64,000 bases of DNA from Obrimoposthia wandeli. Lineage: Eukaryota. Shown in pieces: positions 16,038 through 30,059 of the stretch; position 1 is the stretch's first letter; each line of letters begins with the position of its first letter. Under the pieces are notes generated by a model. It did no database searches, was not told the origin of the DNA, and saw nothing but the letters and a program-made list of their open reading frames with translations. The translations under genes and the position numbers were made by a program. The stretch lies in the NCBI GenBank assembly GCA_977020255.1, contig CDROCS010005499.1, forward strand, positions 62,001 through 126,000, written 5' to 3'.

Positions 16038-16679
16038 TTAAGCGACTTCAATCAACCATGCTTCTTCAGCAAAATGGCTTAATCCATTTTTACGTCGTGG
16101 GTGTGTTTCATCTTTTTCATCGCGCGCTAAAAGCGTGATGTTACAGCCATCAAATAAACGGCGTACCTCATCGCTCATCACCGAGAATGGAGGACCATTT
16201 AATTGCTCTTGTGGGTAATCTAACGTTACCAATAAAATGCGACCGCCTTTTTTCACTAACGACAATAAACGCTCAACATACATTTCACGCATATTTTCTG
16301 GCATCGCAATTAATGCGGCACGATCGTAGACCACATCGACAGGATCAATACGAACAGAAAAATAATCGCCACAATGAATGGTGATCTCATCAAATGCATA
16401 CACACTTTCATGACCTATCGCCGTCACCATTGGCGTGTACAAATGTTCAGCAAAAAATGATCTTACTGCGATGTCGCTCAGTTCAATACCGATTACGTTA
16501 TTATGTTTTTGTGCTAGCCAAACCAGATCAACAGACTTCCCACACATAGGCACAAGTACACGATCGTCGCGTGTTGCTTTTACCATTGGCCAATATTGCG
16601 TTAATAGCGGGTTTGTATCGTCAAGGTGAAAGCCAATGCGATTCTCTGCCCAACGGCTATGCCAAAATTCTGCGTCCAT
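16038..16679 (-). CDS. tpm: Thiopurine S-methyltransferase
   Basis: FWHSRW...IGFH, VLVPMCGKSVD, YDRAALIA, GPPFSV. Confidence 0.95.
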   Translation of the reverse strand: MDAEFWHSRWAENRIGFHLDDTNPLLTQYWPMVKATRDDRVLVPMCGKSVDLVWLAQKHNNVIGIELSDIAVRSFFAEHLYTPMVTAIGHESVYAFDEITIHCGDYFSVRIDPVDVVYDRAALIAMPENMREMYVERLLSLVKKGGRILLVTLDYPQEQLNGPPFSVMSDEVRRLFDGCNITLLARDEKDETHPRRKNGLSHFAEEAWLIEVA

Positions 16680-16810: not shown

Positions 16811-18325
16811 ATCGAGTAGGGTGAGGCGTTACCGCCTCATCCCTCTCACAGAACCGTACGTACGGACCTCGTATACGGCTCCTGTAGTCTTCTATTCCCT
16901 ATCTTACAGGGAGCAAGATCCCTGTTTTCACTTCGTCTATCGCATATAAGCCAACTTCCTTGAACCATTGATTCGGCATGGCATCTCGCGGCATTTTTCC
17001 ATGATCCATCGTCATAAACTGAATGGCGATTTTTCAGATGCAATTTCATCGGCTTCTTCCACAGCTCGCCTCAGTCTACGCCTTAAGCTAAAAGTAGTTG
17101 ACCCTTCAGAACAGGATTCAGTTCTTTAATGGCTAAGTTCTTTCCAAGCCGCTTTACTTTGGCTTTAAAGTGGTTGAACTTATTGATCACAACGCCAAGG
17201 TCACTGTGGGCGATATATTCACTGTTAAGTTGCTTTTCCAAGATATGACTGGCTTTTCCTCGCATGCTCGGCACATCAAGAATATCGTCAGCGTAGCGCA
17301 TATTCGGTGATTTCGCTTCTTCATGTCTTGATCAAAGGCATCGATAAATATTGGCAAGCAGTGGACTTCTTCCCAGCTCGCCAACCGTCACCTATCATGA
17401 TTTTCAGGAATTTATCTATCAGAGAATACTGCCGTCTGTGATACGACTGACAGGCATGATCGAGCATATCAAAGCATTTCGAAGATCCATATCTACCACA
17501 TGTCGACGCCCATACTGGTATAAACATCGGGCTTTACTGATGGCCTGATGACAACTCCTACCCGGACGATAACCATAACTTGATGGATGAAAGTCGGGAT
17601 CGAAGATGGGGGTCAATGGTCGATAGACATTGTTGAACTCGGTCTCGAACTTCATCTTTTGGGATCTCGAAACATACCGCCTTGCAAAAGTAACTAGGTT
17701 ACTTTTCCAGATCTTGCGCACTTCCACGCACTGTGCTGGGAGCTACGAATCCCTCATAGAGCGCTTGCATTGAAAGCCGTCCATAAACAGGCTGTAATAT
17801 ATTCGCACGGTTACTGTCTCGCACATCACTGTCCATTCGCCAAAGTCAGTTCGGTTTGTTTCGTCACGCAGCATTTGTTCTAGCAATCAGCAAATGAGTA
17901 GGAATGACTACTCCCTATGGCGCTAGCCATCGCCGGGAATTCACTCTTTGCTGCCTAATCGGCAGCTTGTGCACCTGTTTTGGTTTTTCGCTTCTTTTCA
18001 GTGTATTAAAGAACAACCCACATAGATATGTTCTCCAAAACACGTTGCTGCTGGTCAGCAGTTTATCCTCCACACCAGGGTTTCACTTGAACTTTACTCA
18101 CTACTACGGGTTCATCTGCCACCTCACACCAACATAAGTTGAATCACTTCTTGTGCTTATGCTCAGCCTTATGCTTCCTCGGTTACTGCACCAGTCCCTG
18201 TTAGAGATTGTGATCTGAGTATCGATTGCGGACACTGCGGGTTCACGTCTTCCTTCAGACCCATCGTTGGCCACTTCCTCAGTCTGGGTGATTCTGCTTT
18301 CTTTCAAGCAGACGGGTACGATCTT
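16811..18325 (-). mobile_element. Degenerate group II intron (short domain V, class C-like)
   Basis: Domain V GAGCCGTATACGAGGTCCGTACGTACGGTTC (16851-16881), domain VI, 3' end CTACTCGAT at 16811; about 0.5 kb of structured 5' RNA. 5' boundary approximate. Confidence 0.85.
16899..17808 (-). pseudogene. Group II intron RT/maturase pseudogene
   Basis: Fragments in different frames: PIFDPDFHPSSYGYRPGRS, VVDMDL, IDAFDQ, RYADDI, ELNPVLKG. Deletions and frameshifts. Confidence 0.9.
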
Positions 18326-19329: not shown

Positions 19330-19701
19330 TTAACGGTAAAAATCGACGACTTGAATTTTTGATATGTCGTTATTAGCAGCCAGATCCATGCTGAAGCGGT
19401 TTTCACCCAATACTTTTACCGTTGCGCCCATTTTACCCGTCACACTCACGCCTTCAATTTTATTGAACGTCTTTTCATCGTTGTAATGCATGGTAACAAC
19501 AACGTTCGTTTCAATATTCGATGACAAGTCAAAAGTACAAATCCCTGTAGGGCAATATACATCTAGTGTCGTTTGATCAGACGCCACCGCCATTTTATCC
19601 ACATTTTTAACCTGTGTTGCGGTGAGCTGTAACGCATCGCCACAGCCAGATAGCATTAATAATGAGGCGACAACAACACTACCTAAAAAAAATTGCTTCA
19701 T
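19330..19701 (-). CDS. Hypothetical lipoprotein
   Basis: Lipobox LSGC; start moved to ATG 19701. Confidence 0.75.
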   Translation of the reverse strand: MKQFFLGSVVVASLLMLSGCGDALQLTATQVKNVDKMAVASDQTTLDVYCPTGICTFDLSSNIETNVVVTMHYNDEKTFNKIEGVSVTGKMGATVKVLGENRFSMDLAANNDISKIQVVDFYR

Positions 19702-19978
19702 ATCTATCCCCTTAGATTTGCATTCATAAATACGATATTTTTTCATCATCGAGAAAGAAAATCATTGATAATGATGACTAAAATACTCAGCGTATTCTAC
19801 GGGAATATCAAAAAAAATAGTCACAATTGTGCAGATTTTTTCACTTCCCATTGACCACACAGAAAGTATGTCAATAATCTTACTTTTGTGAAATCGATTC
19901 CATTTATCACACCTAAACTCATTGGATGACCGCTTAGCTAGGCAGCAATGTATTCATCATTTTTTAATGGGTAAACCT

Positions 19979-21469
19979 ATGGATATTAGAAGTGCTCGAT
20001 ATTTTTTAATTAAAAACAAATTCAAACCAATTCAACATCAGGCTTTATGCTTATTTCCCCTACTCTATTTAATCCGATCTTTTTTTATATTGATATTATT
20101 ACTAGCATCATTTCACATTCATGCACAAGACGGCTTATATAAATGGCAAAAGCCGCATAAACCATTAACAGAAGAACAAATAGCGGAAAGTAACCCTTTT
20201 TATCCATCACGGGCTACCACCGATGGTCGCCAGCTAACGCCAGATATGTTTGAAAACCCTGAAGTCTGCAAAGGATGTCACAGTGAAATTTACCAGCAGT
20301 GGGAAAAGTCCGCCATGGCCTACTCGTGGGAAGACCCTATTTACCAAGCGCTATTTCTACGCGCGAGTAAAGCAACAGATGGCCAAGTTGATAATTTTTG
20401 TATTGCTTGTCATAGCCCAATAGGCATGACGAGCATGAATGCTTCTGCCGCAATGATCGAAACAAACACCGATCTACCAGGGGTTAACTGCGAAGTTTGT
20501 CATAACATTACCGGTATAACGGGTAACGATAACGCAGCGTACATTTTATCACCCAACAAAGATAAACATGTAAAATTAGGTCCGCGTACTGATGCAAGTT
20601 CGCCTTACCATAAAATAGAATATTCAGATCTTCATACTCGCTCAGAATTTTGCTCTACTTGCCATAATGTTTCTCACCCTTTCAATAGCACACCGATAGA
20701 ACGTACTTACGATGAATGGCAGGAAAGCGCTTATAACGAACAAGGCATACAATGCCAAGATTGCCATATGACACCAGGGCCAGGACAAAGCGATAACCCA
20801 GGTAAATCAGCCATTATGGGAAAAGAGCGTAAACACATTTATTCCCATGAATTTACAGGGGGAAATTCAACACTGCATCAATATTTTAATAACCCTGATA
20901 GTGCTGAACTTTCGCGTGCCATGCTAAGATCGGCGGCAACCATTGAGTTTATTGATTTACCTGACTCACTCATAGCAGGCGAGCTTGTCACGATAAAAGT
21001 GAAAGTGGCCAATGTGGGTGCGGGTCATAAATTGCCTACTGGTTTTCCTGAAGGCCGTGAGGTGTGGGTTGATTTTAATGTTAAGACAGACATTCAACCC
21101 TCAATATACCGTTCTGGTGCCGTTGTCGATGGACACACCGAAAAAGGGACGCGTAACTTCAAAGTCACGTTAGGTGATGCCAATGGCAATGTGGTTGATC
21201 TCAATGTATGGGAAGTTGATAGAGTGTTGTCTGATACGCGCATTCAACCGAATGGCTATTCAATCGTCGATTATACTTTTCAAATACCAGAAGATACGTC
21301 AGGTATTATTACCTTATATGCTCAGCTCAATTACTGGCCATTCCCTCAAGAAATTGTTGATGAATTACTCGGTAAAGATAAATTAAAGGTCGATATCGTT
21401 AATATGACGTCGGTAAGTGCTGCATTGCCTATTGTTAATGCTGAACAGACAATTGCAATGAAGCCTTAA
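19979..21469 (+). CDS. Exported multiheme (5 x CXXCH) cytochrome c with C-terminal beta-rich domain
   Basis: CKGCH, CIACH, CEVCH, CSTCH, CQDCH; hydrophobic leader ending FHIHA-QD. True start uncertain (19922-20050). Confidence 0.85.
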   Translation: MDIRSARYFLIKNKFKPIQHQALCLFPLLYLIRSFFILILLLASFHIHAQDGLYKWQKPHKPLTEEQIAESNPFYPSRATTDGRQLTPDMFENPEVCKGCHSEIYQQWEKSAMAYSWEDPIYQALFLRASKATDGQVDNFCIACHSPIGMTSMNASAAMIETNTDLPGVNCEVCHNITGITGNDNAAYILSPNKDKHVKLGPRTDASSPYHKIEYSDLHTRSEFCSTCHNVSHPFNSTPIERTYDEWQESAYNEQGIQCQDCHMTPGPGQSDNPGKSAIMGKERKHIYSHEFTGGNSTLHQYFNNPDSAELSRAMLRSAATIEFIDLPDSLIAGELVTIKVKVANVGAGHKLPTGFPEGREVWVDFNVKTDIQPSIYRSGAVVDGHTEKGTRNFKVTLGDANGNVVDLNVWEVDRVLSDTRIQPNGYSIVDYTFQIPEDTSGIITLYAQLNYWPFPQEIVDELLGKDKLKVDIVNMTSVSAALPIVNAEQTIAMKP

Positions 21470-23287: not shown

Positions 23288-23304
23288 CTTAAGCCTTTCT
23301 TAAG
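23288..23304 (+). promoter_or_regulatory. PmrA/BasR/QseB-type direct-repeat box
   Basis: CTTAAG-N5-CTTAAG, 48 bp upstream of the operon. Confidence 0.6.
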
Positions 23305-23351: not shown

Positions 23352-23981
23352 ATGAACACAAATTACCTCAACACCCATGCCAATTTACTTCTTATCGATA
23401 AGCAACACCCTTATCGACAAGACGTAGAGCAGTATGTTTCCACACGCTATAAAGATGCCTTTAATGCAAAGATTGTCGAATTCATGCCAACCTTTATGGC
23501 TATCTATGATGATCAGCAAGTGCTGCTCTCTGTTTGTGGATTTCGCGTGGCAAGCCAAGAACCCCTTTACCTAGAGCAATACCTTCCTCAGCCTGCTGAT
23601 ACATTAATGGCAGAATCTTTAGATCGTAATATTGACCGCAGCAAACTCATAGAATTTGGACAACTTGCATCTTTTTCACACGGTATGTCGCCGCTGCATT
23701 TTTTGTTGATGACCCAAAAACTCGTCGATAGCGGTTTTGAGTGGTGTATTTTCACTGCAACCGATCCCCTCTACGTCATGATGTGTCGTCTCGGTTTACA
23801 ACTGCATGTGTTATCTGATGCAAACCCGAATGTGATACCCAATGCGGAATCAACGTGGGGAACGTATTACCACCACCAGCCTCGTGTTTCTGCAGTGAAT
23901 TTACCCTTAGGGCTTTTGCAATTAAAAAAACGATTTTCTCGCTTAGATGCGATTAAACAATGCCGTAAGGAAAGACGCTAA
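23352..23981 (+). CDS. 'Thermostable hemolysin' (delta-VPH) family; acyltransferase-like
   Basis: CGFRVASQEPLYLEQYL, IEFGQLAS, WCIFTAT, WGTYY. Confidence 0.85.
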   Translation: MNTNYLNTHANLLLIDKQHPYRQDVEQYVSTRYKDAFNAKIVEFMPTFMAIYDDQQVLLSVCGFRVASQEPLYLEQYLPQPADTLMAESLDRNIDRSKLIEFGQLASFSHGMSPLHFLLMTQKLVDSGFEWCIFTATDPLYVMMCRLGLQLHVLSDANPNVIPNAESTWGTYYHHQPRVSAVNLPLGLLQLKKRFSRLDAIKQCRKERR

Positions 23982-26365
23982 TGAACACAATTGACGATCA
24001 TAACATTCAGCATAAGAGTGTACTGACGGCCCTAGAAAAATGGGCGATACAATGCCCAACAAAACTGGCTGTATTGGGTGAATTGCGCACTGAAGAAACA
24101 CACGCTCAAAGCTCGCTAACAAACAATAAGCCACACAGCAGTCTTACATTCAGTGAATTATGGCAAGCGGTACAACACGCAAAGCATGCATTAATGGCAT
24201 TACAAGCTAAACGCATCGCCTTAAAAGCAGATAACAGCATTAACTGGGCAATTATCGATCTCGCAGCAATCGCGGCAAACATTGTATTAGTGCCTGTACC
24301 CATGTTCTTTTCTAGCAGCCAGATTACTCACCTACTAGACACCGCCAATGTAGATACGCTAATAGGCAATTGGGAAAAAACAACAGATGCGCTGGATTAT
24401 ACAGACGCGGTAGGTTATATAGCAGCGCTAACGGTGTACCACCGAGCAACACATAATAAGCAACAACAGTTACCAACTGGTACGGCAAAAGTCACTTTTA
24501 CATCAGGCTCTACTGGTCAGCCTAAAGGTGTCTGCCTGAGTATGGCGCATTTAGATAACGTGGCTCGAACACTGGCTAATGAACTGATCCTTTCATCATG
24601 CCCTAACAAGCACTTAGTGCTACTCCCCCTATCTACTTTACTTGAAAATATAGCAGGGCTGTATGTACCGATAATGCTTGGCATTTCAACCACTATCCTT
24701 TCTGGACGTCACCTCGGATTAACCGGTTCAAGCCAATTTAATCCTTCACTGTTTATTCACGCATTACAAAGCCACCAGCCACAAAGCCTTGTGCTAACAC
24801 CGCAATTATTGATGGCATTAACGGACATTGTTCAAGCGGCACCTGCAGCCGTCTCTCATACCATTTGTTCATTAAAATTTGTTGCTGTGGGTGGCGCACG
24901 TGTTTCACCTCAATTATTAAGTAAAGCGCACGCTGCGGGTATTCCTGCTTATGAAGGTTATGGATTATCTGAATGCGGCTCTGTTGTAAGCTTAAATCGC
25001 CCTGACATTAATACTAAGAACAATCAAAAAGGCAGCAGCGGACGCGTATTACCTCATTGCCACGTCACCTTTTCTGGTGAGGGTGAAGTCTTGGTTTCTG
25101 GATCGACCATGCTTGGATATATCGGCGATCCTATACAACCTACATTTATCGAAACTGGCGATATTGGTTACTTAGACAATGAAGGTTTCTTGCACATTAC
25201 GGGCCGTAAGAAGAACATTTTGATCACCAGTTATGGCCGTAATATCTCGCCAGAATGGATTGAATCAGAAGCACAAGCTTATGCTGGGCTGCAACAAATG
25301 GTTGTACTGGGTGATGGACAAGCCTCGCTCACCGCCATTATTGCCACCCAAAATTTAGAACACTCATTAATACAACGGAACCGAAAACAAAGCCTTAAAC
25401 AAGTAACGGAATCTATTGCGCAATTAAATGCCTCGTTACCTGATTACGCACGAATCGGTTCCATCATTATTTCTCATCCATTTAATCAATTACCTGCATT
25501 GGTGACCAGCAACGGTCGTCCACGTCGAGATGCCTTTCAGCTCTATTTTCAACCTGAACTTAGCAAGTTAGATAGCATAACAAGTGACAATGTAACCACA
25601 CCTACAGAGATCATCATATTAAATACAACATCGGCTCTTTCAATACATAAGGATCACACCATGACGTCACCAATACCGTTCTTTGAACAATTACAACAGC
25701 GCACTCAAGATGCACAACAAACCATGCGAAACGCACCCGTTTTCACGGCATGCGCTAATGGTGAAATGAGCCTTGATGCTTATATTTCCTTTCTTACTCA
25801 GGCTTACCATCATGTGAAGCATACCGTTCCACTATTGATGGCTTGCGGCTCGCGATTACCCGAGCATTACGAATGGCTACGCCAAGCAATCGGTGAATAT
25901 ATCGAAGAAGAAAAAGGTCATCACGAATGGATATTGAATGACATTCAAACATGTGATGGTAATACCGATGATGTGCGTGCGAATACCCATCAAGGAAAAG
26001 TCGGTGCCGATATCGAATTAATGGTCGCCTATCTTTACCACCAGATTGATCGTCGTAACCCAATGGCCTTCTTTGGCATGGTATGGGTACTAGAAGGTAC
26101 AAGTGTGAGTGAAGGCGGACAAGTCGCCACAGCAATTCAAACAACGCTGACGTTACCCGATAGCGCAATGAGCTATTTACAATCACACAGTGAATTAGAT
26201 AAAGAGCACATCGAAATGTTTGAAGGGCTGATGAACCAGATCACCGATCCTGATGATCAGCAAGCCATTATCGACGGTGCAAACATGGTGTACCAATTAT
26301 ACGGTCAGATGCTGCATAACTTGCCCATTACTCAGTCGCATTCAACATCAACTGCTGCGGCCTGA
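23981..26365 (+). CDS. AMP-dependent acyl ligase fused in frame to a heme-oxygenase-like diiron (iron-containing redox) domain
   Basis: FTSGSTGQPKG, GYGLSE, TGDIG, GRKKN, then YHHVKH, EEEKGHHEWILND, LEG, HSELDKEH. Internal AAGGA RBS plus in-frame ATG at 25661. Confidence 0.88.
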   Translation: MNTIDDHNIQHKSVLTALEKWAIQCPTKLAVLGELRTEETHAQSSLTNNKPHSSLTFSELWQAVQHAKHALMALQAKRIALKADNSINWAIIDLAAIAANIVLVPVPMFFSSSQITHLLDTANVDTLIGNWEKTTDALDYTDAVGYIAALTVYHRATHNKQQQLPTGTAKVTFTSGSTGQPKGVCLSMAHLDNVARTLANELILSSCPNKHLVLLPLSTLLENIAGLYVPIMLGISTTILSGRHLGLTGSSQFNPSLFIHALQSHQPQSLVLTPQLLMALTDIVQAAPAAVSHTICSLKFVAVGGARVSPQLLSKAHAAGIPAYEGYGLSECGSVVSLNRPDINTKNNQKGSSGRVLPHCHVTFSGEGEVLVSGSTMLGYIGDPIQPTFIETGDIGYLDNEGFLHITGRKKNILITSYGRNISPEWIESEAQAYAGLQQMVVLGDGQASLTAIIATQNLEHSLIQRNRKQSLKQVTESIAQLNASLPDYARIGSIIISHPFNQLPALVTSNGRPRRDAFQLYFQPELSKLDSITSDNVTTPTEIIILNTTSALSIHKDHTMTSPIPFFEQLQQRTQDAQQTMRNAPVFTACANGEMSLDAYISFLTQAYHHVKHTVPLLMACGSRLPEHYEWLRQAIGEYIEEEKGHHEWILNDIQTCDGNTDDVRANTHQGKVGADIELMVAYLYHQIDRRNPMAFFGMVWVLEGTSVSEGGQVATAIQTTLTLPDSAMSYLQSHSELDKEHIEMFEGLMNQITDPDDQQAIIDGANMVYQLYGQMLHNLPITQSHSTSTAAA

Positions 26366-26453
26366 ATCGATTGGCAGGCCATCGCACTCAAGAAAAAGAC
26401 ACTCAAAAGAAGCACGAAAAGCCTTACGCCCTACAGAATAAAAGGAGCAACAG

Positions 26454-27254
26454 ATGGATTTAAAACAAAAACGCATTCTACTTACAGGAGCTACAGGGGG
26501 AATTGGATCAGCATTAGCGATCCAGTTAGCCAAACAAGGCGCATATTTAATTCTTGCGGGAAGACAACAAACCAAGCTTGATGCACTTAAAAGTAGCCTT
26601 GAAAACACCAGTGAACATCGTTGTATCGCAGCTGATTTGACGACTGATGGTATAGAAACCATCAACACAGCTTGTCAAAATTGGAAAGATCAGGGCATCT
26701 ATATTGATGTCGTGATCAACAATGCGGGAACCAATACTTTTGCTTATCTCGCACAGCAAACCACTGCCAGCATTACACGAGAAACGCAGTTAAATATGCT
26801 GGCTCCTATTTTGTTAAGTCAAAAAGCCCTCTCTTGGCTTCAACGTCCGGGCATCATATTGAATATAGGATCAACATTCAGTGCCATTGGATACCCAGGA
26901 TACAGTACCTATTGTGCAACAAAAGCCGCGATTCATCGCTTTAGTGAGGCAATGCAACGTGAACTTACTGGTACCGGTATTCAAGTGTTGTACTTTGCCC
27001 CTCGCGCAACCGACACAAAACTAAATGATCAAAGGGTTACAGAGCTCAATACATTGCTCGGGAATAAAACAGACAGTGCTGAATATGTTGCCAGTCAGAT
27101 CATTGTCACATTGAAAGCAGAAACAAAATACCGCTGGCTTGGTTGGCCTGAAAAATTGTTTGTTCGCCTTAACCAATTATTACCCAGTGTCGTGTCGTCA
27201 TCTATTCGAAAACAACATACGCGTATCACCGAATTTGCCAGTAAATCACTATAA
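26454..27254 (+). CDS. SDR family oxidoreductase
   Basis: TGATGGIG, NNAG, YCATK. Confidence 0.92.
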   Translation: MDLKQKRILLTGATGGIGSALAIQLAKQGAYLILAGRQQTKLDALKSSLENTSEHRCIAADLTTDGIETINTACQNWKDQGIYIDVVINNAGTNTFAYLAQQTTASITRETQLNMLAPILLSQKALSWLQRPGIILNIGSTFSAIGYPGYSTYCATKAAIHRFSEAMQRELTGTGIQVLYFAPRATDTKLNDQRVTELNTLLGNKTDSAEYVASQIIVTLKAETKYRWLGWPEKLFVRLNQLLPSVVSSSIRKQHTRITEFASKSL

Positions 27255-27299
27255 AAAGCACTACCTATTCACCAGAATTTCGACGCCAAGGAGTACACA

Positions 27300-27950
27300 A
27301 TGAAATTGAATAAACAACAGTTCAAAGCGGTTATCACATCTGGATGCTTGTTGATATTAGCTTCTCCCGTGAATGCTGCATCACAAACAGACTCTCTACC
27401 CACGATTCAAAAACAATGGGCAAAATGCCAATACGATACGTTTAATAAAGATAACAAAATAGAGTGTCTCGAAGGCCTTGTTAAACAAACACAACAATTA
27501 CTTAATCAATCGCCGAACCGGAGTGACCTTAAGGTATGGTTAGCCATCACAAAAAGTACCCTTGCTGGTGTTGATGGTGGGCTAGGTGCATTATCTTTAG
27601 CAAAAGAATCCAAGATACTGCTCGATGACGTTATAAAAAAAGACCCAGAAGTGCTTGATGGATCAGCATTTACCAGTTTAGGTTCACTATACTACAAGGT
27701 ACCAGGCTGGCCGATTGGCTTCGGTGATGATGACAAAGCAGAAGAAATGCTTAAAAAAGCTTTAGCGATAAACCCTACGGGTATTGATCCCAATTATTTC
27801 TATGGTGATTTTTTAGCGCAAGATGGACGACAATCAGAAGCGATTGTGTACCTGAAGAAAGCGCAACAAGCTGCACCCCGTTCACAGCGCCCACTGGCAG
27901 ATAAAGGGCGACAGCAAGAGATTGCGAATAGATTAAAGGAATTGCAGTAA
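27300..27950 (+). CDS. Exported TPR protein
   Basis: Signal peptide ending VNA-AS; LGSLYYKVPGWPIGFGD, ALAINPTGIDPNYFYGDFL. Confidence 0.85.
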   Translation: MKLNKQQFKAVITSGCLLILASPVNAASQTDSLPTIQKQWAKCQYDTFNKDNKIECLEGLVKQTQQLLNQSPNRSDLKVWLAITKSTLAGVDGGLGALSLAKESKILLDDVIKKDPEVLDGSAFTSLGSLYYKVPGWPIGFGDDDKAEEMLKKALAINPTGIDPNYFYGDFLAQDGRQSEAIVYLKKAQQAAPRSQRPLADKGRQQEIANRLKELQ

Positions 27951-27952
27951 AC

Positions 27953-28609
27953 ATGCGTATTTTACTTGTCGAAGATGATGTGATGTTGGGGGAATCCATG
28001 GTGACGTCGTTAAGTCGCCATGGCTATACCGTAGACTGGTTACAACAAGGCAATGGTGTAGAGGTCAATCTAAACACTGAAACCTTTATGGCTATTATTT
28101 TAGACCTCACACTACCCGATACCGATGGTTTAGAGGTACTGCGCAGAGTACGAAAAGCGGGACATACCCTGCCCATTATCATTTTAACGGCGCGCGATGA
28201 AATCAACGATCGTGTCAAAGGGCTTGATGGTGGTGCTGACGATTACCTCGTCAAACCTTTTGCGCTTGAAGAATTATTAGCTAGGCTTCGCGTATTAATC
28301 AGACGGGTTTCTGGGCATACCGACGCACAATTAGAAATTGGGGATTTATCGATTTCACTCAATACCAATGACGTACATTATCAAGGTAACCCAGTAAAAC
28401 TCACTAAAAATGAGTTTAAGATCTTAGCCACCTTGGTAACACAATCAGGACGCGTGCTTAGTAAAGAAAGCCTGCAACAAGTACTTCATGGTTGGGATGA
28501 TCTGGCAAGTGACAATGCTATCGAAGTGCACATTCATAATTTAAGGAAAAAAATTGGTGGCCAGCTAATCAAGAATATCCGCGGAGTGGGCTATATTATT
28601 GAAAGCTAA
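27953..28609 (+). CDS. OmpR-family response regulator (QseB/PmrA-like)
   Basis: MRILLVEDD, LDLTLP, GADDYLVKPF, IEVHIHNLRKK. Confidence 0.95.
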   Translation: MRILLVEDDVMLGESMVTSLSRHGYTVDWLQQGNGVEVNLNTETFMAIILDLTLPDTDGLEVLRRVRKAGHTLPIIILTARDEINDRVKGLDGGADDYLVKPFALEELLARLRVLIRRVSGHTDAQLEIGDLSISLNTNDVHYQGNPVKLTKNEFKILATLVTQSGRVLSKESLQQVLHGWDDLASDNAIEVHIHNLRKKIGGQLIKNIRGVGYIIES

Positions 28610-30059
28610 AAAATCATTCAACCCCGAACTTTTTTCCATCAAAAGACGACTAACCCTTACGACAATAACGGTTGCGTCTGTGCTGGTACTATTATCGTGG
28701 ATTTTAACATTTTACGAAACCCGACATGAAATAGATGAAGTCTATGATGCTCGTCTTGGGCAATCCGCTAAAATTTTAGCTTTAAGCATGCCACACATGC
28801 TGCAAGAACCTGCCGCTATACGTACAAAAGCTTATTCCGATTGGTATCACGATATTCAACTCAACGCCACCGACGATGATACCGTCACGACCTTTGGTCA
28901 TCCTTACGAACAGAATTTAATGTTTCAATTTTTTACTCTGACTGAAGTCATACTCAAATCACCAGGGGCGCCTACAACATTAATCGGCGATGTTAATCAA
29001 CCAGGGTTTAGCTTCGTTACAATCAACAATGAAGAATGGCGTCGCTTTCAAATTCAATTACCCCCTCAGCCCGATATGGACCAAGCTGCCTTTTTAGTCA
29101 CGGCAGAAAGGCATGCGATTCGCTCAGAGTTAATTAATGAAATAGCCATCTCTACCGGATTACCTCAGCTTGTGTTGATCCCTATTCTTGCCCTAACAAT
29201 TATCTTTTTAGTGAACAAGTTTCTTCAGCCTATCGATGATCTTCGTAAAGCTATCGCTCAACGCAACATCAATAAACTCGATAGTATTCACGTACCACAA
29301 CCAACAGTTGAGTTAGCACCGCTGGTTAATCAGCTTAACTATTTATTCGCTGAATTAGATAAAGCATGGCAACGTGAACGTCGGCTTACTCGCACCGCTG
29401 CACATGAATTAAAAACCCCTCTTGCAGTGCTTAGATTAAATGCCGAAAATGCCCTAAATAGCTCAAATAAAAATGAATTAAGAAATGACCTAACAAATAT
29501 TTTGCAGGGTATTGATCGTACAGATCGCCTGATCCAGCAGCTACTGATGCTTTCTAAAGTGGAAGCAGAACAAGCCTTTCATCCTGAACCCGTAGAGGTA
29601 ATGGCATGTCTACGTGATGTTATCGCCTCACTTGCACCGATTGCTTTAAAGCAGAAGCAAGAATTATCACTCGATGGGCCCGATATCGTCATGACGCAAG
29701 GCAACGCCATGTTACTGAGTATCTTATTTAGTAATATTATCGATAATGCCATTCGTTATTCTGGCACTCATTCAACAATAGAAATAACAGCAACCTGTAA
29801 AAACAACAATGAGATGTTAACGTCAGACGTAATCGAAATTATTGTTCATGACAATGGCGAAACCATTCAAAAAGAGATTCGAGACAAGATCTTTGAGAAA
29901 TTTTTCCGAGGTAACACCGAACGAGGCGATGGTGCTGGTTTAGGTATGTCTATTGTGGCAGACATTGCCACAATGCACGGTGGTTATGTTAAGTTACTCC
30001 CTCCAACGGATCATCAAGGTAATGCATTCTTAATATCATTACCTTGTGACCCAAACTAG
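28599..30059 (+). CDS. Sensor histidine kinase (QseC/PmrB-like)
   Basis: Two TM helices; HEIDE in the periplasmic start; AAHELKTPL H-box; NAIRY, GAGLGMSIV. Confidence 0.95.
   Translation: MKAKKSFNPELFSIKRRLTLTTITVASVLVLLSWILTFYETRHEIDEVYDARLGQSAKILALSMPHMLQEPAAIRTKAYSDWYHDIQLNATDDDTVTTFGHPYEQNLMFQFFTLTEVILKSPGAPTTLIGDVNQPGFSFVTINNEEWRRFQIQLPPQPDMDQAAFLVTAERHAIRSELINEIAISTGLPQLVLIPILALTIIFLVNKFLQPIDDLRKAIAQRNINKLDSIHVPQPTVELAPLVNQLNYLFAELDKAWQRERRLTRTAAHELKTPLAVLRLNAENALNSSNKNELRNDLTNILQGIDRTDRLIQQLLMLSKVEAEQAFHPEPVEVMACLRDVIASLAPIALKQKQELSLDGPDIVMTQGNAMLLSILFSNIIDNAIRYSGTHSTIEITATCKNNNEMLTSDVIEIIVHDNGETIQKEIRDKIFEKFFRGNTERGDGAGLGMSIVADIATMHGGYVKLLPPTDHQGNAFLISLPCDPN

Follow-up and report, generated by a model that had tools for sequence, protein, structure and literature searches.

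In FeeM, a Glu of the central strand has a catalytic role, and the FeeM cluster performs oxidative tailoring of the N-acyl amino acid. The protein that opens the operon described here, a member of the 'thermostable hemolysin' (delta-VPH) family PF12261, shares with FeeM the predicted fold, the central-strand E-x-x-Q and the lack of SAM motifs. It differs from FeeM in sequence (13% identity, with no Pfam FeeM match among the families listed) and in having an acyl-AMP ligase as a partner and no carrier protein. Members of the LuxI family (LasI, TofI, the CoA-dependent BjaI, RpaI and MesI) give the best structural scores (Z 14.8-16.2), and their central Glu also aligns; however, LuxI carries SAM motifs, and operons of the present type, which contain a heme-oxygenase-like dimetal oxidase (HDO), have no luxR. 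The commendamide synthase ChoA/GlsB and the COG3176 'putative hemolysins' are likewise N-acyltransferases under a hemolysin label. The product of ChoA lyses red cells, whereas the purified protein does not (PMC5643525). By description, these enzymes belong to another GNAT family, and they are accompanied by no ligase, oxidase, SDR or sensor.

The V. cholerae dth region (VCA1111, VCA1110) and V. parahaemolyticus VP1729-VP1735 represent the same operon, and all seven genes are present in order at the V. cholerae locus (L019; 43-67% identical). Genome papers on Vibrio and Aeromonas routinely list the delta-VPH/dth gene among the virulence genes. In the available text of PMC12208996 and PMC10469919, the region is treated as a hemolysin gene with an adjoining fatty-acid ligase gene and no pathway is proposed, and our literature search found no paper proposing an acyl-amide pathway or product for the operon. 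The mib1 cluster (PMC13689391) and the J380 redox gene (PMC8069873) proved to be different loci.

In the window, i.e. the whole 64-kb stretch of the Obrimoposthia wandeli contig that was analysed, the operon comprises six ORFs with seven functions, all on the + strand (23352-30059). The features are as follows.

23288 to 23304, + strand: CTTAAG-N5-CTTAAG direct repeat, a QseB/PmrA/BqsR-type box, with its end 47 bases upstream of the first ATG
23352 to 23981, + strand: PF12261 'thermostable hemolysin' (delta-VPH family), 209 aa, likely an N-acyltransferase (Pfam E 1.2e-60)
23981 to 25660, + strand: acyl-AMP ligase (ANL) with a long-chain acyl-CoA synthetase-like C-terminal domain, forming the N-terminal portion of a 794-aa fusion, with linker (PF00501 E 2.9e-39, PF23562)
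25661 to 26365, + strand: heme-oxygenase-like dimetal oxidase domain, forming the C-terminal portion of the same fusion (PF14518 E 4.7e-31)
26454 to 27254, + strand: classical SDR, family PRK09072 (NF006565 346.6 bits versus a cut-off of 238)
27300 to 27950, + strand: exported TPR protein with a predicted cleavable signal peptide (signal-peptide-like N-termini in homologs)
27953 to 28609, + strand: OmpR-family response regulator, PmrA/QseB group (PmrA 250.4 bits, cut-off 330; QseB 214.7 bits, cut-off 345)
28599 to 30059, + strand: QseC/PmrB-like histidine kinase with a 2CSK_N periplasmic domain (QseC 206.7 bits, cut-off 475; PF08521 E 2.3e-6)

Seven functions are encoded by six ORFs because the ligase and the diiron oxidase are fused here. 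All of the parts named in the first-pass annotation are present on the + strand and the operon was confirmed, with inter-ORF gaps of -1, 88, 45, 2 and -11 bases from first to last. The close spacing of the parts was correctly described, with one correction: the ligase and the diiron domain are not two genes but form a single 794-aa ORF. This fusion is natural. It occurs in 14 of the 82 HDO-type loci, where the fused rows are dispersed across the drawn tree, and a contig from run X5 (possibly identical to the source data) reads through the junction, differing by 2 substitutions and without a gap; an assembly error as the origin of the fusion was rejected on the basis of the fused relatives and this contig. 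The sequence AAGGA is located 7 bases upstream of an internal ATG at 25661, which suggests that the oxidase may also be translated separately from this codon. Promoter and terminator scans yielded no more matches than shuffled sequence. Among 151 sampled genomes from the family of the P. frigidiphilum genome that contains locus L001 (G001), a full PF12261 gene lies at most ~2.4 kb from the oxidase gene, on one contig with it, in all 30 oxidase-bearing genomes, and the clustering is thus not due to chance.

A Pfam search of the first protein detected PF12261 only, and PDB sequence searches with the protein or its profile yielded nothing useful; the fold search alone was informative. The structure model (pLDDT 94.4) matched LasI (Z 16.2, rmsd 3.4, 166 aligned residues) and FeeM (PDB 2g0b; Z 14.5, rmsd 3.0, 165 aligned residues; Foldseek E 2.1e-6), and the best 12 structural rows were AHL synthases or FeeM throughout (Z 13.6-16.2, model residues 7-197). 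The earlier suggestion that this protein is acyltransferase-like was thus borne out by the Foldseek check, in which AHL synthases and FeeM were the best matches. Profile comparison gave a modest match to the FeeM family (probability 71%, E 3.7e-5) and a probability of 7.6% for the LuxI family, and the Pfam FeeM family PF21926 is not among the 25 families listed, out of 27, for 149 members. E75-x-Y77, E101-x-G103-Q/N104 and W169-G-x-Y-Y-x3-P177 are conserved in the PF12261 family. E101, which is retained in 148 of the 149 members, aligns with the Glu of the central strand in the FeeM family, and E101-F-G-Q104 aligns with the E-x-x-K/Q strand of that family (E-V-V-Q in FeeM itself). The WGxYY motif is specific to PF12261 (149/149 versus 0/18 in the FeeM comparison). 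In contrast, the SAM-binding motifs R-x3-F..W and E-x-D-x-x-D, each present in 19 of 20 LuxI-family proteins, are found in none and one of the 149 members, respectively. AHL synthase identity was rejected because these motifs are missing; together with the retained E-x-x-Q of FeeM, their absence indicates that the protein is likely an N-acyltransferase. In a search spanning 469-2000 aa but not 367-468 aa, no longer, fused forms of PF12261 were found, which is weak evidence.

In the fused protein, the ligase part retains the P-loop, GYGLSE, TGD and GR..GRN..PEW.E, and adenylation motifs A3, A5, A7 and A8 are present in at least 90% of 70 sequences. Position 513, which we take to be the A10 catalytic lysine site, is Arg in the window and in 47 of the 70 sequences and Lys in the other 23. 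All of the NCBIfam ligase models listed score below their cut-offs. The diiron domain proposed in the first-pass annotation was supported: a 3His/3carboxylate ligand set that aligns with that of CADD is invariant in 66 of 66 sequences, the predicted ligands being E84, H87, E145, H176, D180 and H183 (domain numbering; positions in the fusion are higher by 560). Profile comparison produced alignments to CADD CT610 (E 4.1e-5) and to MboA (E 0.001), and the model (pLDDT 94.0) has the seven-helix heme oxygenase fold (Z 22.3 to CADD, rmsd 2.2, 208 aligned residues). The characterised HDOs (CADD CT610, MboA, UndA and HrmI) share this fold and ligand set, but their identities to the operon oxidase are only 12-16%, and the nearest structure is the uncharacterised Sden_3740 (3dde; Z 25.7). 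The modelled fold does not reveal which reaction the oxidase catalyses. The text of a 2026 HDO review mentions none of hemolysin, Vibrio, ligase and acyltransferase. The SDR has the N114/S140/Y153/K157 tetrad in all 68 sequences, and Arg37, present in 55 of the 68, suggests NADP(H) use.

The PF12261 family was found in 100 of the 401 sampled genomes of the phylum and in none of 14 controls, and it comprises 1,630 clusters at 50% identity (E up to 0.001). Among 101 fetched loci, the ligase gene adjoins the PF12261 gene in 96, the diiron oxidase is present in 82 and a TauD dioxygenase in 13, and the two oxidases never occur together. The five genes are kept without the two-component pair at 21 loci, and the PF12261 gene stands alone at three (L097, L101 and L102). 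In genome G531, 146 bases separate it from the oxidase gene, leaving no room for a ligase. At two loci (L085 and L176), TauD is combined with the SDR, and their ligases nest among HDO-type ligases in a quick tree, suggesting that the oxidase was replaced in place. The order at L162 and L163 is luxR, tauD, ligase, PF12261, MFS exporter and luxI (Pfam was run on L162), and Serratia 39006 has tauD, ligase and delta-VPH-like genes with a Bcr/CflA exporter, which are 184-fold up in an rsmA mutant (PMC4046660). The TauD partners are distant from solved enzymes (best E 9.5e-7), too far to name a reaction. Since TauD and HDO replace each other, the chemistry of the oxidase is narrowed to reactions within reach of both families.

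The two-component pair shares with QseBC, PmrAB and BqsRS the best family hits, the 2CSK_N domain and the same direct-repeat box before the own operon. It differs in scoring below the orthologue cut-offs, in lacking the EYRDD signal motif of QseC (PMC5053249) in the window kinase, and in following four enzyme functions and the TPR protein rather than ygiW. The periplasmic region of the kinase is conserved among 45 sequences at acidic E44-x-x-E47, at GHPYE and at R175-x-E177-x3-E181. The presence of a QseB/PmrA-type box ahead of this operon is a new finding; the box sequences were taken from PMC5053249 and PMC13522522. The box is the sole match in the window at ≤1 mismatch and the sole perfect match in genome G001. 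At ≤2 mismatches it occurs at 57 of the 59 loci that carry the two-component pair and at 6 of the 40 that do not (1.5 and 0.4 in shuffles), counts that are not independent because related genomes share both box and pair. It is likely the binding site of the operon's response regulator. Of the earlier proposal that the cluster has its own sensor, control of the operon is upheld by the conserved box and the two-component pair, but sensing of the product is not; metal or envelope cues are likelier stimuli of the kinase than the product. The box provides a direct handle for switching the pathway on and points to a target of 'QseC' in bacteria carrying the operon.

Because a predicted acyltransferase fold, a gene row fixed in many bacteria and a regulator with a likely upstream site are combined here, a fatty-amide product is likely, and we consider that the operon probably makes an oxidised N-acyl amide, either a small lipid-like metabolite or an aminolipid. 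We infer the reactions, their order and their substrates from predicted folds and from the observed gene order, linkage, enzyme motifs and box co-occurrence. The ligase is expected to activate a carboxylic acid that is probably a fatty acid, and the PF12261 'hemolysin' would transfer the acyl group onto an amine in a FeeM-like manner. The iron oxidase would oxidise the product using O2, and the SDR would reduce a carbonyl arising from this oxidation, a step suggested by the TauD-type loci, which continue with an SDR or class-III aminotransferases, both carbonyl-acting. By binding to the upstream box, the response regulator would turn on the operon, including its own gene, in response to a cue that is probably metal or envelope, and the TPR protein would serve in the periplasm as a binding or carrier protein for the hydrophobic product. 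Hemolysis by clones would come mainly from N-acyl amide built on host acyl donors. The biosynthesis-cluster reading of the first-pass annotation is supported by the outcome of the fold test, the invariant ligands and the link of the box to the two-component pair. If the PF12261 protein is an N-acyltransferase, the whole Pfam family is mislabelled, and a four-enzyme pathway of wide distribution, its diiron oxidase as yet uncharacterised, would await a product. Several observations count against biosynthesis, namely the absence of an exporter, a carrier protein and an amine-supply gene from the HDO-type operon, the Arg at the ligase A10 site, the modest FeeM profile match, the loci with PF12261 alone, genome G531, the toxicity of V. 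fluvialis deltaVFH and the growth role in P. alcaligenes AVO110.

The last of these suggests another possibility, that the operon handles an outside lipid or amphiphile: the TPR protein would capture it, the kinase would induce the operon, and the ligase, oxidase, SDR and acyltransferase would modify or degrade it. The AVO110 copy, matched through annotation and gene order alone, responds to fungal exudate with a 38- to 389-fold induction, and growth on the exudate requires the ligase, findings that the authors interpret as fatty-acid breakdown (PMC8304167). T-component proteins have been linked to lipid import (PMC10942540), an exporter is missing from the HDO-type operon, and a V. cholerae vca1110 mutant is described, in the available part of PMC12208996, as altered in the elongation of a supplied C13 acid. 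However, FeeM/LuxI-fold enzymes are amide-forming, the inspected loci show no conserved importer or beta-oxidation gene next to the cluster, and the TauD-type relatives have exporters, luxR/luxI and RsmA control, all typical biosynthesis traits; we regard this explanation as unlikely. Envelope modification, in which the same chemistry under a PmrAB/BqsRS-like metal or cation signal would place the acyl group or activated acid on a membrane lipid or lipid A instead of in a free molecule, appears quite unlikely; the operon contains no membrane-bound transferase or second acyltransferase and 21 of 101 loci have the five genes without the two-component pair. It would nevertheless fit the closeness of the regulator and kinase to PmrA/QseB and QseC/PmrB, the acidic periplasmic motifs, the same box at the neighbouring lipid A phosphoethanolamine transferase gene of V. 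cholerae (L019), the cupredoxin and FTR1 iron-uptake genes that follow the kinase at L085 and L165, and the binding of PS and PA by deltaVFH, as given in the available text of PMC11033176. This reading overlaps with that of an acyl amide if the product is an aminolipid.

The PF12261 protein may instead be primarily a secreted membrane-damaging toxin that the adjoining enzymes mature or accompany, but we consider this very unlikely. A 2024 cytotoxicity report on a V. fluvialis homolog, which was missed in the first-pass annotation, describes in its available text that purified recombinant deltaVFH kills THP-1 cells, lyses sheep red cells and is found in the supernatant, and that hemolysis is lost in a double mutant, although a single mutant is barely affected (PMC11033176). 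A V. fluvialis protein bearing the name delta-VPH shares 58% identity with the window protein. In the main text of that report as available, 'endotoxin' and 'LPS' do not occur, and a catalytic-mutant or endotoxin control was not seen. A purified COG3176 N-acyltransferase was also reported to be hemolytic, but its active-site Arg mutants lost hemolysis, according to the accessible part of PMC4657338. Furthermore, the acyltransferase fold spans nearly the whole PF12261 chain, the family occurs in one in four of the genomes sampled from the phylum, and a V. cholerae paper, known from its title in a reference list, denies a direct contribution to virulence. The window protein has no signal peptide (N-terminal hydrophobicity 0.85 versus 2.45 for the TPR protein); a signal-like N-terminus is missing in 142 of 149 members, and 7 of 149 reach a hydrophobicity of 1.6.

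The exported TPR protein is a possible carrier of the product or substrate. Its residues 109-181 match the lipid-binding T-component protein BstC (7t1s, E 2.2e-8), but the similarity is partial: the score against NF045602 is 43.1 bits (cut-off 350), and no conserved lipobox Cys for a lipoprotein anchor was seen by eye in the homolog N-termini. Profile comparison indicated that it is not homologous to the kinase sensor domain. A hidden autoinducer circuit in Vibrio, Pseudomonas and many other Pseudomonadota, in which a SAM-free LuxI-fold synthase would yield a new oxidised N-acyl signal that is captured by a T-component-like periplasmic protein and read by the 'QseC' kinase, which re-induces the operon via the box, is unlikely. 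The TPR gene is internally deleted at two loci (L001 and L002).

Six ORFs lie at window positions 23352-30059, with inter-ORF gaps of -1, 88, 45, 2 and -11 bases. This arrangement agrees with the first-pass annotation, which had described an acyltransferase-like gene, a ligase, a diiron domain, a short-chain dehydrogenase (SDR), an exported TPR protein and a two-component system in one operon. The ligase and the heme-oxygenase-like domain are both present as described there, but they form a single 794-aa fusion rather than separate genes.

Features of the operon at window positions 23352-30059
ORF 1 of six, + strand: PF12261 'thermostable hemolysin'
ORF 2, + strand: AMP-binding ligase fused to a heme-oxygenase-like domain (794 aa)
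ORF 3, + strand: SDR
ORF 4, + strand: exported TPR protein
ORF 5, + strand: response regulator
ORF 6, + strand: histidine kinase

The closest loci are those of P. frigidiphilum (L001) and P. profundum (L002), which show 87-89% identity in the first protein and share the flanking genes. The Photobacterium-like window is located on contig C5499 inside a 1.35-Gb assembly of 6,912 contigs. In this eukaryote-sized assembly, C5499 is most likely bacterial and probably derives from a contaminant or a host-associated bacterium. The ligase-oxidase fusion is natural. A contig from sequencing run X5, which may be the source data of the window itself, spans the fusion junction without gaps. The same fusion is present in 14 of the 82 loci in which the oxidase is a heme-oxygenase-like dimetal oxidase (HDO-type loci), and the fused rows are dispersed over a quick ligase tree; in P. 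profundum, the two genes are split.

A structure model of the PF12261 protein was built from 149 sequences (pLDDT 94.4). Its best PDB matches in Foldseek were LasI, MesI, TofI, FeeM and BjaI (E 3.4e-7 to 2.3e-6), and after realignment the top 12 rows consisted exclusively of AHL synthases or FeeM, covering model residues 7-197 (LasI: Z 16.2, rmsd 3.4, 166 aligned; FeeM: Z 14.5, rmsd 3.0, 165 aligned). The FeeM/LuxI-like N-acyltransferase fold that had been proposed for the delta-VPH family is therefore recovered in the predicted structure. An Atlas feature search excluding PF12261 clusters gave hints of GNAT in one cluster (15% of it) and of FeeM in a second one (12%). By profile comparison, the family is nearer to FeeM (probability 71%, E 3.7e-5) than to LuxI (7.6%), and a strand reading E-V-V-Q in FeeM aligns with E101-F-G-Q104 of the PF12261 protein. 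The motif WGxYY is present in all 149 PF12261 members and in neither reference set. The PF12261 protein of the window thus likely works like an N-acyltransferase, as judged from the model and the motifs. It is not a member of the Pfam FeeM family, and its identity as an AHL synthase is ruled out because the LuxI SAM-binding motifs, found in 19 of 20 LuxI proteins, occur in 0/149 and 1/149 members. Pfam probably already places PF12261 in the acetyltransferase clan; if so, the fold by itself is not news.

The oxidase, SDR and ligase look intact in sequence. The oxidase model matches CADD with a Z of 22.3, and residues E84, H87, E145, H176, D180 and H183, which align with the CADD ligands, are invariant in 66 of 66 sequences and match the 3His/3carboxylate ligand set of HDOs (PMC13108848, in excerpt). 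The SDR scores above the PRK09072 cut-off, with its tetrad kept in 68/68 sequences, and the ligase keeps the adenylation motifs, although 47 of 70 sequences carry Arg where the A10 motif usually has Lys. The TPR protein carries a signal peptide and partly matches the sterol-binding BstC (E 2.2e-8), but it scores far under the BstC-family cut-off. In the two closest relatives, two internal deletions have shrunk its gene to the same remnant (L001:11838-12074 and L002:11814-12049) without loss of the enzymes, two-component pair or upstream box; the TPR protein is therefore dispensable there.

Among 151 genomes from the family of P. frigidiphilum, the oxidase and a full PF12261 gene occur in exactly the same 30, lying within about 2.4 kb of each other; one further genome has a PF12261 fragment only. 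PF12261 matches were found in 100 of 401 phylum genomes, a sample rich in small genomes, versus none of 14 controls. We compared 101 loci, a non-random sample (33 + 40 + 8 + 20, the 40 coming from the phylum survey). Of these, 52 have all seven functions, 21 have just the five-gene core, and six combine the two-component pair with a core that lacks the TPR gene. The ligase occurs in 96 loci, the HDO in 82 and a TauD in 13, the two oxidases never together. The five loci without a full ligase are two on short or broken contigs (L032 and L166) and three solo or tandem PF12261 copies (L097:8050-9421, L101:8366-9004 and L102), whose genomes hold another match elsewhere. In genome G531 (C2:1598002-1599271), the ligase gene is apparently missing, because only 146 bases separate PF12261 and the oxidase match.

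The TauD-type loci differ in their other genes. In L085 and L176, TauD takes the place of the HDO with an SDR as neighbour, and nesting of their ligases among HDO-type ligases in the quick tree suggests that one oxidase was swapped in place for the other. L086:7836-14747 and the loci L154-L161, apart from L159, which ends early, encode TauD, two class-III aminotransferases and an amidase; this cluster has a divergent LysR gene, and the box is absent. In L162:2530-8813 and L163:2932-9211, tauD, the ligase, PF12261 and an MFS exporter gene lie between luxR and a true luxI, and a quorum-controlled exported metabolite is therefore likely. Excerpts of PMC4046660 describe an operon of tauD, ligase, delta-VPH-like and Bcr/CflA exporter genes in Serratia 39006 that showed the strongest rise, 184-fold, in an rsmA mutant. 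The constant core would thus consist of acyl activation, acyl transfer and O2-dependent iron oxidation. The oxidation would yield a carbonyl, because SDRs and class-III aminotransferases both act on carbonyls.

A perfect CTTAAG-N5-CTTAAG box is present at 23288-23304; it is the sole match in the window, and the P. frigidiphilum genome also has a single perfect match. Its sequence is identical to the QseB site CTTAA-N6-CTTAA and to the box of BqsR (PMC5053249 and PMC13522522, both in excerpt). When up to two mismatches were allowed and L032 and L033 were excluded, 57 of the 59 loci with the regulator and kinase had the box upstream of the operon, versus 6 of the 40 without (shuffles, 1.5 and 0.4); two of these six are short contigs. 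Because related genomes share both features, the association is weaker than its Fisher p of 5e-18 suggests, but the pattern holds in named Vibrio-group loci and separately in loci from the order of genome G225. Control of the operon, including its own two genes, by the two-component pair via the box is therefore likely. The annotated 'own sensor' holds to this extent, but the following features would point to a metal or envelope cue rather than to the operon product: the periplasmic domain of the kinase has acidic motifs; in L085:4505-6931 and L165:2327-5507, the genes immediately behind the kinase encode a cupredoxin and an FTR1 iron permease, as in ferrous-iron uptake operons; and in V. cholerae (L019:14518-16227), a kinase-adjacent gene for a lipid A phosphoethanolamine transferase is likewise preceded by a PmrA-type box (16211-16227). 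The V. cholerae boxes could be read by another PmrA-type regulator.

It is very probable that the operon encodes some form of enzymatic acyl pathway. The earlier interpretation, a biosynthesis cluster for a modified N-acyl metabolite or an envelope modification, is supported by the predicted acyltransferase fold, the intact enzyme motifs and the linkage. The best single reading, ahead of three rivals, is synthesis of an oxidised N-acyl amide, which we consider somewhat probable; the HDO-type operon contains no exporter and no carrier protein, which counts against it. That the product is an N-acyl signal acting as an autoinducer is unlikely. Lipid breakdown or detoxification, which we regard as rather unlikely, draws on a P. 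alcaligenes operon of the same annotation and order: in excerpts of PMC8304167, fungal exudate raises its expression 38- to 389-fold, and growth on the exudate requires its ligase. Modification of the envelope is quite unlikely.

Least likely of all is that the PF12261 protein is primarily a protein toxin. The purified deltaVFH protein is reported to be cytotoxic, to lyse red cells, to bind PS and PA and to occur in the supernatant (PMC11033176, in excerpt). The single mutant was barely affected, and endotoxin and LPS are not mentioned anywhere in the main text of that paper. In the ChoA precedent, a 'hemolysin' N-acyltransferase was harmless once purified and its product lysed cells (PMC5643525, in excerpt). 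The purified acyltransferase BPSL1375 was hemolytic, and active-site mutants lost activity (PMC4657338, in excerpt).

Under the N-acyl amide reading, the cluster would be of a FeeM-like kind, distinguished by a combination of enzymes not described so far, an oxidase that can be exchanged and a regulator box dedicated to it. Among the papers listed in a search that covered mainly open-access journals and main texts, none put forward a pathway for the cluster or a role as acyltransferase; supplements of HDO genome-mining papers could list it.

Three further features lie upstream of the operon. A 515-aa multiheme cytochrome c (19922-21469), conserved in both closest relatives, shows a weak likeness to ExtKL (58 bits, cut-off 250). 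A 139-aa lipoprotein-like ORF (19330-19749, - strand) has no match in Pfam or NCBIfam, and a short group II intron reverse transcriptase fragment (TIGR04416, E 9e-15) is located at 17419-17727 on the - strand.
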